A stretch of 64,000 nt of DNA from an uncultured Ectothiorhodospiraceae bacterium (GTDB lineage Bacteria; Pseudomonadota; Gammaproteobacteria; UBA9214), in contig CAMYJI010000004.1 of NCBI GenBank assembly GCA_947258545.1, positions 6,701 through 70,700 of the forward strand, read 5' to 3'. How positions within the stretch are numbered: the first letter of the stretch is position 1; each line of letters starts with the position of its first letter. The translations under genes and the position numbers were made by a program. A model generated the notes under the pieces. That model did no database searches, was not told where the DNA came from, and worked only from the letters and a program-made list of their open reading frames with translations. This document shows positions 7,768 to 9,450 of this stretch, in pieces.

Positions 7768-9450
7768 GTGAATAAGAATCCGGAATTTGAGCAATCCATG
7801 TTGAGGGTTGCTGGTATTGCTATAGTTGCTCTATATATATTCACGCTACAAAATTATAGAGATATTCCTGTTTTACAAATAAATTATGTAATCGTATTTG
7901 GAGTAATCTATTTTTCTATATCATTGCTTATAATGCTTTTCTCTGGCATTGAGGTGGGGAATAAATCCCTACGTCGTGTGTCAGGTATGGCGCTGGATAT
8001 TCTGATGACATCAGTGTATCTGAATATATTATCTGAATATGGTGCGCCCCTGTTTGCAGTATATCTTTGGGTGATAATAGGCAATGGCTTCCGCTTTGGT
8101 GTTGAATATCTCCTGGCAAGCGCTGTCCTTTCTATTGCTGGATTCTTGTGGGTTGCCAATAACAGTTCATACTGGGGTGAATTACCCGCCATAGTAGCAA
8201 CTGGCGTGGTAATACTGGCCGTGGTACCGGGTTACGTGGCAGTACTCCTAAGGAGGTTGCAGACTGAGAAAATCAGGGCAGAGGCGGCCAATAGAGAGAA
8301 ATCCCGTTTTATTGCGAACATAAGCCATGAAATCAGGACTCCGCTGAATGCAGTCGCGGGATTCAGCGAGCTGCTGGATGAGACGTATGACAAGGCATAC
8401 ATGCAGCGTCTGATCAAGGGTATCCAGAGCTCGGCACGCAGCCTGGCAATGCTCGTTGACGGTGTGCTCGAGTTCTCCAGGATCGAGGCCGGGCGTATCG
8501 ATGTCGAGTGCGTGCCGTTCGAGATGGAGGAGCTGCTGGATGGCATCAGGAGTGTATTCTCGCTGCAGGCCGAGAACAAAGGCATCCGGTTTTCCTGCGA
8601 AATCGATCCAGGTGTCCCGCCTGTTATCCTTGGCGATGTCAATCGCCTTCGCCAGGTCCTTGTTAACCTGGTTGGCAATGCCATGAAATTCACAGACACA
8701 GGATATATCAGCCTGAGGCTCGCGAAGCAACGTGATCAGCAGCAAGGCGACATCATCCGCTTCGAGGTGCAGGATAGCGGCATCGGGATCAGGCAGGACA
8801 TACAGCCTTATATCTTTGATCGCTTTCGTCAGGCAGACGATTCGGCCCGGAGAGCGCATGGCGGTACCGGGCTGGGTACGGCGATAGCCAGGCACCTGGT
8901 TGAATTGATGGGCGGGCAAATCGGACTGGAAAGTGAATATGGACAGGGGAGTACCTTCTGGTTCACCATCCCGTGCCAGGTAAGTACTGATACAGGCATG
9001 TCTGCGGCGATCGCTAAGGAACAGCCGCTTGCCGGCCAGCTGCCGGGTGAGGGCAAGGCCATCAGGGTCCTGGTTGCGGATGACAACGAAATGAACCGGC
9101 ATGTTTTCAGAGGGATGCTCAGGAAGCTGGGCATCACGGCAAGTTTCGCCGAATCAGGTCCGGTTGCCCTTGGGAAACTCCTGCAGGACAGGTTTGATCT
9201 TGTCATGCTCGACATCCAGATGCCCGGCATGTCGGGTTTCGATGTGATCGCCCGATACCATGAGGACACGGCCGCTCCTGACAGGGTCCCGATCGTCATT
9301 GTGACAGGGGATGCGACTGCCGATATACAGGCGCAGTGTCATCAGCTGGGGGTCAGCCGCTACCTGATCAAGCCGGTCGAACTGGGCGAGCTGCGACGTG
9401 TTGTCACCGAACTGGCAGGTTTCAATGGCCATGCAGCTGTGCCCGTGTGA
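7768..9450 (+). CDS. RpfC-like membrane hybrid sensor histidine kinase (TM sensor-HisKA-HATPase-receiver)
   Basis: About 5 TM helices with [19 protein letters not shown]-box [10 protein letters not shown]-box [16 protein letters not shown]; receiver [18 protein letters not shown]; no HPt visible. Confidence 0.9.

Follow-up and report, generated by a model that had tools for sequence, protein, structure and literature searches.

The 64-kb window analysed here, a stretch of contig C4 of the genome of an uncultured Ectothiorhodospiraceae-like bacterium (G000), encodes a hybrid sensor histidine kinase together with a large locus for extracellular polysaccharide (EPS) and PEP-CTERM proteins. This raises the question as to what the kinase senses, and whether it serves the locus in whose vicinity it lies or a signalling system encoded elsewhere in the genome. 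The initial annotation noted a likeness of its membrane part to that of RpfC, the Xanthomonas receptor for diffusible signal factor (DSF)-family fatty acids, and proposed that the kinase may perceive a product of the locus itself, an N-acyl amino acid or oxazolone. The likeness to RpfC stands, and the proposed ligand is left unsupported. Phylogeny and gene order place the gene in a clade of kinases that lack the histidine phosphotransfer (HPt) domain and that is fixed beside gltX in this bacterial family. We consider it reasonably probable that the kinase is an accessory, HPt-less DSF-family paralogue of RpfC with a PA1396-like architecture that would relay through an external HPt, the ligand and the partner being what we infer from the comparisons below.

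The protein carries an N-terminal membrane domain followed by HisKA, HATPase_c and receiver domains (coordinates for this and other features are collected in the table; residues are numbered from the GTG start). All catalytic and phospho-acceptor motifs are intact, including the N box (residues 300-305), the G1 motif DSGIGI (336-341) and the G2 motif GTGLG (366-370) of the HATPase_c domain, and the acidic pair DD (438-439), the phospho-accepting D482 and K535 of the receiver, and by these motifs the kinase looks functional. It ends 14 residues past the receiver, and Pfam finds no Hpt domain in it (PF01627, E <= 0.1). The public database copy of the protein (P0001) has 505 residues and starts at Met56; it is 55 residues short and thereby loses the first two membrane helices and the N-terminal sensor stretch. 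Because residues 1-55 are conserved across 24 relatives, with Q9, R13 and Y23 at least 90% conserved, the GTG start at 7768 is supported, and the present analysis corrects the start codon of the database entry.

Residues 1-176 match no Pfam family (best match E 0.17), and no NCBIfam family covers the N-terminal membrane domain; NCBIfam matches to the kinase start at about residue 160 and all stay under their cut-offs, the best being TorS with 329.7 vs 676.5 bits. The domain was therefore defined by our own alignment of 25 input domains (A1), which also served as a profile and from which the conservation given above was taken. A1 yields the pattern W[VLI][TIS][VLI]G[NY]G[FM]R[YF], and W101, G105, G107, R109 and G111 are the invariant motif residues. 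All the motifs quoted in the initial annotation are found in the protein: EFEQSMLR at residues 6-13, RRVSGMALD at 69-77, [18 protein letters not shown] at 94-111 followed by YL at 114-115, YW at 135-136 and VVPGY at 152-156. The domain consists of a short N-terminal periplasmic stretch that includes E6, E8, Q9 and R13, and then five helices. With A1 as the input alignment, AlphaFold2 modelled residues 1-175 confidently (pLDDT 93.6, pTM 0.86) and placed these helices at residues 5-29, 35-61, 66-110, 112-132 and 140-174. A Foldseek search of the model against the PDB gave no match at E <= 0.001, so that no solved structure of the input domain was found; the top TM-score, 0.58 to a chain of Pseudomonas aeruginosa ImcA, is not significant (E 2.8).

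Several lines of evidence connect this domain with RpfC. A database search with residues 1-175 returned 87 proteins, all hybrid-kinase-like and many with an HPt, and 24 of the 87 bear the JGI name RpfC. Scanning public genomes for the A1 pattern gave at least 605 stretches, 603 of them confirmed, and the best 80 loci were kept. An RpfF-like and/or RpfG-like gene lies within 8 kb in 55 of the 80 (RpfF-like in 50, RpfG-like in 37, both in 32); the remaining loci have gltX (ten), cysG only, at a contig end (two), or none of these genes (13). The best 80 loci include no named Xanthomonas or Pseudomonas record, and a bona fide RpfC was reached instead through the RpfF equivalog model (NF053515) among 401 genomes sampled evenly from the class, with 53 genomes at E <= 1e-60, including the unpublished G319, which supports no claim made here. 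The cut-off of the equivalog model was passed in a single genome of the sample, G404 (579 bits). The frame adjoining this RpfF contains the A1 domain twice (127.6 and 139.0 bits), and the second copy heads a 725-residue HisKA-HATPase-REC-HPt kinase; from these features alone we call G404 Xanthomonas-type. Residues 3-550 of the window kinase align with the 725-residue protein (BLASTP, 36% identity over 565 columns, E 3e-106). Profile score, pairwise alignment and cluster neighbours thus all agree with the likeness that the initial annotation had noted, and on these comparisons the input domain of the window kinase is homologous to that of RpfC.

The double domain in G404 lies in a single stop-free frame (L145:6546-9317, on contig C23), and may represent either an rpfH-like copy that continues in frame into rpfC or the two genes fused; two A1 domains in one frame fit the rpfH-rpfC pair described for xanthomonads (PMC4504480). 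Xanthomonas RpfH itself shares the membrane domain, and the first G404 copy precedes RpfC as that review describes, but RpfH has no kinase part, whereas the window protein is a complete kinase.

The genome of the window's own bacterium provides a second reference. Within G000 the input domain occurs exactly twice, in the window kinase and in an 861-residue kinase on contig C34 with the order HisKA-HATPase-REC-HPt (HPt PF01627 at residues 763-819). The two proteins share 36% identity across 410 aligned columns, among them the entire membrane part (E 5e-86), and 34% in the receiver. They have the input domain, kinase core and receiver in common, and differ in that the C34 protein carries an HPt and sits inside an rpf-like cluster. 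In this cluster an RpfF-like crotonase (301.6 bits on NF006452, cut-off 177; 189.2 bits on the equivalog NF053515, under its cut-off of 550) and RpfC are followed by a group comprising a FabF-like ketoacyl synthase (KAS), a cyclopropane-synthase-like methyltransferase (CMAS) and a REC+HD-GYP protein. This is a canonical rpfF-like / rpfC(+HPt) / rpfG-like cluster, and the window kinase is a paralogue of its RpfC. The initial annotation had described the window as devoid of rpfF, rpfG and HPt, and whole-genome searches indeed give no crotonase, HD-GYP or Hpt match on C4. This absence is limited to the window: elsewhere in the genome there are HD-GYP matches on C34 and C48, crotonase matches on C6 and C34, and nine Hpt matches on C2, C5, C11 and C34. 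A stand-alone HPt is encoded on C34 (a 168-residue open reading frame (ORF), 32.2 bits on PF01627).

The position of the KAS and methyltransferase genes between rpfC and the REC-HD-GYP gene on C34 (L005:6350-13681) is an observation in its own right. Four of the public loci (L073, L081, L082 and L095, three of them labelled Sedimenticola) have a KAS homologue, a methyltransferase homologue or both next to the kinase gene, with identities to the C34 proteins of 63-67% for the KAS and, in L073 and L082, 44-56% for the methyltransferase. The presence of these two genes in the rpf cluster hints at a chain-modified DSF-type signal.

How general is this pair of kinases? We compared G000 with its 40 nearest genomes (24 of the same family and 16 of other families, 41 with G000 itself). 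The input domain is present in 21 of the 24 same-family genomes and in one of the 16 others, and its copies come in two kinds. Long copies are frames of about 850-930 residues that adjoin an RpfF-like gene (for example G001:C68, G004:C6, G008:C52, G014:C76, G020:C11 and G040:C31); the RpfF-like model NF006452 passes its cut-off in 20 of the 41 genomes. Short copies, which are closer to the window kinase, are frames of 564-724 residues or are cut by contig ends, and occur in 16 of the 24 family relatives, a count in which the truncated or frameshifted copies of G007, G009, G016 and G023 are classed by similarity alone. Twelve of these 16 genomes also have a long RpfC.

The surroundings of the short copies are constant on the gltX side. 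In 20-kb stretches around eight of them, drawn from three genera (G004, G014, G015, G017, G018, G020, G021 and G022), the kinase gene lies directly upstream of gltX-glnS in all eight, an order that recurs in ten of the 80 public loci; the short kinase of G012 likewise adjoins gltX. The cysG gene immediately precedes the kinase gene in G004 and G014 and sits 5.5-8 kb upstream of it in five others; the 20-kb stretch from G017 showed no cysG. None of the eight orthologues has an HPt, and the proteins stop right past the receiver. Five orthologues from two other genera (L046, L047, L048, L049 and L052) are longer, 676-721 residues, owing to an insert of about 120 residues between HATPase_c and receiver that has no Pfam match and is not an HPt. 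The gene neighbourhood has also been subject to change: three transposase genes, two DDE_Tnp_1 and one ISL3, lie between cysG and the short kinase in G020 (L046:4783-9498, on contig C27), and upstream of gltX in G024 there is a degraded remnant of a short-kinase input domain (G024:C17:42671-43000) interrupted by one TAG and two TAA codons, by which we judge the gene to have decayed in place.

To these data we added a maximum-likelihood tree of 76 rows, made up of the window kinase, the RpfC proteins of C34 and G404, the eight syntenic orthologues and 65 of the 80 public loci; the other 15 comprised three duplicates of loci already present under a genome handle and twelve unsuitable loci, which ran into a contig end, spanned under 500 residues from match to stop or were without a long N-terminal match. 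The tree comes from a quick search with no bootstraps, was midpoint-rooted, and has several long branches and rows flagged for odd composition, and only two points are drawn from it. The gltX-linked HPt-less kinases form a single clade of 15 rows, with a value of 100 in the Shimodaira-Hasegawa-like approximate likelihood-ratio test, and this clade is nested among the rpf-cluster kinases. By this tree the short clade is monophyletic and arose within the RpfC family. Conservation reaches 80% or more in both clades, short and long, at 21 sensor columns, and at none of these do the conserved residues differ between the two.

Comparison with characterised receptors bears on what such a domain may bind. 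In X. campestris pv. campestris RpfC a 22-residue N-terminal stretch binds DSF, with R15, D17, S18, E19 and Q22 essential (PMC5391125). The window kinase shares with RpfC an input domain of five helices preceded by a short periplasmic N-terminus, the motif W-x3-G-N-G-(F/L/M)-R-(Y/F)-G and the HisKA, HATPase and receiver domains. Its N-terminal [11 protein letters not shown] aligns opposite EDSEHAQNLIR of the G404 RpfC-type kinase, so that the positions of the five essential residues read N2, N4, P5, E6 and Q9: the equivalents of E19 and Q22 are kept, and those of R15, D17 and S18 are N, N and P. It further differs from RpfC in having no C-terminal HPt and in its location between cysG and gltX, unlinked to rpfF or rpfG. 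PA1396, on the other hand, consists of five transmembrane helices followed by HisKA, HATPase and REC (PMC6536496), and has in common with the window kinase this domain order, the outward N-terminus and the absence of an HPt; both would need an HPt in trans (PMC4504480). The 18 PA1396 residues whose numbers are printed in PMC6536496 are E8 and 17 positions of helices IV and V. With a constant offset of -2 the window kinase matches nine of them, namely at E6, Y114, L115, L121, W136, P140, V152, P154 and Y156; eight other offsets give zero to three matches. The loops of the AlphaFold2 model (30-34, 62-65, 111 and 133-139) coincide with cytoplasmic and periplasmic loops derived from PhoA and LacZ fusions to PA1396. 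Two differences remain. PA1396 adjoins its regulator PA1397, whereas neither a regulator nor an HPt gene flanks the window kinase, and PA1396 senses signals of other species (PMC4504480), whereas G000 has its own rpfF/rpfC/rpfG-like cluster. The nesting of the gltX-linked clade within rpf-cluster kinases of sulfur-oxidiser lineages, in a tree that does not contain PA1396, hints that the HPt was lost here independently of PA1396. BCAM0227 of Burkholderia, considered as a further RpfC-like sensor, was rejected, as a review states that it is not a homologue (PMC4504480).

These comparisons also bear on a different reading, that the input domain has been re-used for another cue, such as a membrane lipid, a hydrophobic compound from a host or the environment, or membrane stress, and feeds a pathway outside Rpf. 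The three substituted positions in the DSF-binding stretch fit this idea, as do the split of the clade from the rpf clusters and the loss of its HPt, the authors' own question in PMC6536496 as to whether helices I-III of PA1396 detect other ligands, and the retention of the kinase in G012 without RpfF or long RpfC. The domain is, moreover, found in other company: the 367-residue protein P0034 combines an RpfC-type input domain (E 2.1e-15) with a GGDEF domain, and it is therefore also paired with an output that makes cyclic di-GMP (c-di-GMP). A change of ligand is, however, unlikely in our view, since the 21 columns conserved in both paralogue clades contain no clade-specific switch, the N-terminal E-x-E-Q-x-x-L-R motif and the PA1396-matching residues of helices IV and V are kept, and a long RpfC is retained in 12 of the 16 genomes that have the short kinase. 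For the accessory DSF-family receptor that we prefer, the same shared columns and the same retention of long RpfC favour the same ligand class in both paralogues.

If this preferred reading is right, the kinase would bind a medium-chain cis-2-unsaturated fatty acid of the DSF family, or a close lipid carboxylate, at the face between membrane and periplasm. The ligand may come from the RpfF-like crotonase on C34 or from neighbouring species. Binding would raise autophosphorylation at His187, and the phosphoryl group would pass to Asp482 of the kinase's own receiver and then to an HPt in trans, for which the 168-residue stand-alone HPt on C34 and the HPt of the 861-residue RpfC are candidates. 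From there it would reach a response regulator, most obviously the RpfG-like REC-HD-GYP phosphodiesterase for c-di-GMP, or another regulator. A rival reading centres on the receiver. It resembles the solved RpfC receiver, chain 3m6m_D (E 8.3e-16). The entry 3M6M is the complex of the RpfC receiver with RpfF. The protein could instead be mainly a modulator, either by draining phosphate from the Rpf relay, as a sink or a phosphatase, or by binding the RpfF-like synthase through its receiver. The absence of an HPt and of an adjacent partner, and the frequent company of a long RpfC, speak for such a role. The sensor domain and the kinase motifs (H187 and the N, G1 and G2 boxes) are nevertheless conserved throughout the clade, which argues for a working, ligand-gated kinase, and G012 has no RpfF-like gene over cut-off that could be bound; we regard a mainly modulatory role as decidedly improbable.

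The reading as an accessory DSF-family receptor has evidence to contend with too. Only two of the five DSF-essential residues of RpfC are identical (E6 and Q9), and the correspondence with PA1396 was drawn through published residue numbers. No HPt or response regulator gene adjoins the kinase, here or in the relatives examined, nor is there a conserved HPt or regulator beside the orthologues, where only the transposases of G020 and one gene block were seen. This block, in G015, G018 and G022, runs REC-GerE / UvrC / CDP-alcohol phosphatidyltransferase / Y-family polymerase and holds the only regulator nearby; we take its first three genes to be the usual uvrY-uvrC-pgsA order. The 98% complete genome G012 has a short kinase with neither a long RpfC nor an RpfF-like gene over cut-off, and the kinase is therefore not always dependent on an endogenous synthase. 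Finally, 19 of the 24 family relatives have PrsK, the histidine kinase of the PEP-CTERM locus, and 16 have the short kinase; with both so common, their co-occurrence leaves room for a general regulatory influence on EPS. All of these points weigh against the reading we prefer.

This leads to the proposal with which the question began, namely that the kinase is the receptor for an N-acyl amino acid or oxazolone produced by genes 12-23 kb downstream and closes a quorum-sensing-like loop for EPS and PEP-CTERM expression. There are grounds for taking it seriously. N-acyl amino acids resemble the amphipathic acyl carboxylates that an RpfC-type domain binds (PMC5391125); in G000 and in G004, whose kinase is the closest orthologue (75% identity), the kinase shares its contig with a PrsK-led PEP-CTERM locus; and both genomes carry the TIGR03694 acyltransferase and the ThiF-like gene. 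Three further genomes of the same genus (G001-G003) show neither this kinase nor TIGR03694. These assemblies, however, also miss the essential gltX, having only GluQRS-like frames of 313-317 residues; the pattern is uninformative because the gltX region that flanks the kinase was not assembled there, and we rejected it as evidence. The wider profile that the initial annotation called for speaks against a specific tie. TIGR03694 passes its cut-off in four of the 41 genomes (G000, G004, G006 and G035) and the ThiF-like model NF006077 in three (G000, G004 and G035), so that among the 16 relatives with a short kinase TIGR03694 is present in two (G004 and G006) and the ThiF-like gene in one (G004). 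The two genes share a contig in G000, G004 and G035, and G006 has no ThiF-like gene. In G035, TIGR03694, ThiF and PrsK lie within 18 kb on one contig with no such kinase. PrsK is present in all four TIGR03694 genomes. Around the 80 public loci, homologues from the PEP-CTERM side (TIGR03694, PrsK, the ThiF-nitroreductase fusion, PrsT, a PepA-like protein and a methyltransferase) were found within 8 kb in none.

The layout of the window points the same way. The distance of 6.5 kb between the kinase and the beginning of the PEP-CTERM/XrtA locus is a side effect of the conserved cysG-kinase-gltX-glnS backbone; adjacency of kinase and gltX is family-wide, and a PrsK gene follows only in the same-genus G004 among the eight relatives examined. 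A strong terminator-like hairpin after glnS parts the backbone from the EPS locus, and a consensus scan found no such site with a proper T run between cysG, kinase, gltX and glnS. Opposite-strand ORFs occupy 13.2-15.3 kb between glnS and the EPS locus, which extends from about 15.9 kb on and includes export and assembly genes. That locus has its own two-component system, PrsK/PrsR. PrsK is, like the window kinase, a membrane histidine kinase within this window, but it belongs to an unrelated family and is paired with PrsR; its model TIGR02916 does not appear in the list of NCBIfam matches to the window kinase (best 25 of 158). In addition, the genome contains a dedicated RpfF-like synthase for the ligand class that would be expected. 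As evidence that would tell against its proposal, the initial annotation had named a canonical rpfF/rpfG elsewhere in the genome together with a response of the kinase to DSF, or a lack of co-occurrence with the acyltransferase genes; the genome has the rpf genes, on C34, and the relatives show the lack of co-occurrence. We therefore consider a receptor for the locus's own acyl compound very improbable indeed, with the reservation that the co-occurrence data for these genomes rule out no more than a specific link with the acyltransferase and ThiF genes. Our literature searches turned up no paper with a meaningful link between DSF signalling and PEP-CTERM systems.

Features of the kinase and its surroundings in the 64-kb window
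Feature	Coordinates	Strand	Evidence or remarks
cysG (siroheme synthase)	6313..7716	+	NF007922 663 bits, cut-off 400
HPt-less RpfC-family hybrid sensor histidine kinase	7768..9450	+	560 residues, GTG start; ORF, Pfam, BLASTP
RpfC/PA1396-type membrane input domain, residues 1-175	7768..8292	+	alignment A1, AlphaFold2 model
HisKA (DHp), residues 178-242; phospho-accepting His187 in HEIRTP box	8299..8493	+	PF00512 E 1.4e-17
HATPase_c, residues 289-403	8632..8976	+	PF02518 E 3.8e-29
Receiver, residues 434-546	9067..9405	+	PF00072 E 1.3e-22
gltX	9549-10958	+	TIGR00464 586 bits
glnS	10955-12682	+	TIGR00440 780 bits
Terminator-like hairpin after glnS	12855..12878	+	10 pairs, 8 G-C, then T run; consensus scan
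TIGR03013 priming transferase	15905-17314		
PrsK	17405-19510	+	TIGR02916 774.8 bits, cut-off 300
PrsR	19507-20877	+	TIGR02915 686.6 bits, cut-off 502.6
ThiF-like/nitroreductase-like fusion	21240-23231		663 residues
Two tandem TIGR03694 acyltransferases	29214-29993, 30343-31146		about 257 and 259 bits

Two further genes of the EPS locus deserve mention. The exosortase at 49066-50718, which has a C-terminal EpsI-like part, gets its best score as exosortase W (NF038142, 482.9 bits vs a cut-off of 425); the XrtA model gives it 136 bits vs a cut-off of 208, in a locus that is otherwise XrtA-marked. A REP-associated tyrosine transposase (60397-61017; NF047646, 152 bits) lies inside the locus.

Sensors related to RpfC that have no HPt are already known in PA1396, and a second DSF sensor beside RpfC is known from Xanthomonas, where RpfS is a PAS-domain kinase of a different kind (PMC4159695). 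What is new here is a gltX-linked clade that exists beside a canonical rpf cluster, and its interest is modest unless a two-receptor relay or a second ligand is shown. One such arrangement, which we hold to be rather improbable, is a two-receptor DSF circuit dating from the ancestor of the family, in which the gltX-linked paralogue would either use the canonical RpfC's HPt, so that a branched multikinase relay would result, or detect a second, chemically distinct acyl signal. The KAS and cyclopropane-synthase-like methyltransferase genes of the rpf cluster might have a part in shaping this second signal, and a possible identity for it in the lineage of G000 and G004 is the N-acyl amino acid from the PEP-CTERM locus nearby. 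With the present analysis the private acyl-signal loop for PEP-CTERM and EPS expression is removed as unsupported and a testable alternative is put in its place. Genes for rpfC and rpfG have been reported in a sulfur-oxidising gammaproteobacterium (PMC4136832), and DSF signalling in such sulfur-cycle bacteria is known from gene annotation only. The uncultured Ectothiorhodospiraceae-like lineage studied here has a complete DSF-type quorum-sensing cluster and, in addition, a conserved PA1396-like receptor; if this extra receptor responds to DSF-family acids, environmental sulfur-cycle bacteria would have two DSF receptors side by side.

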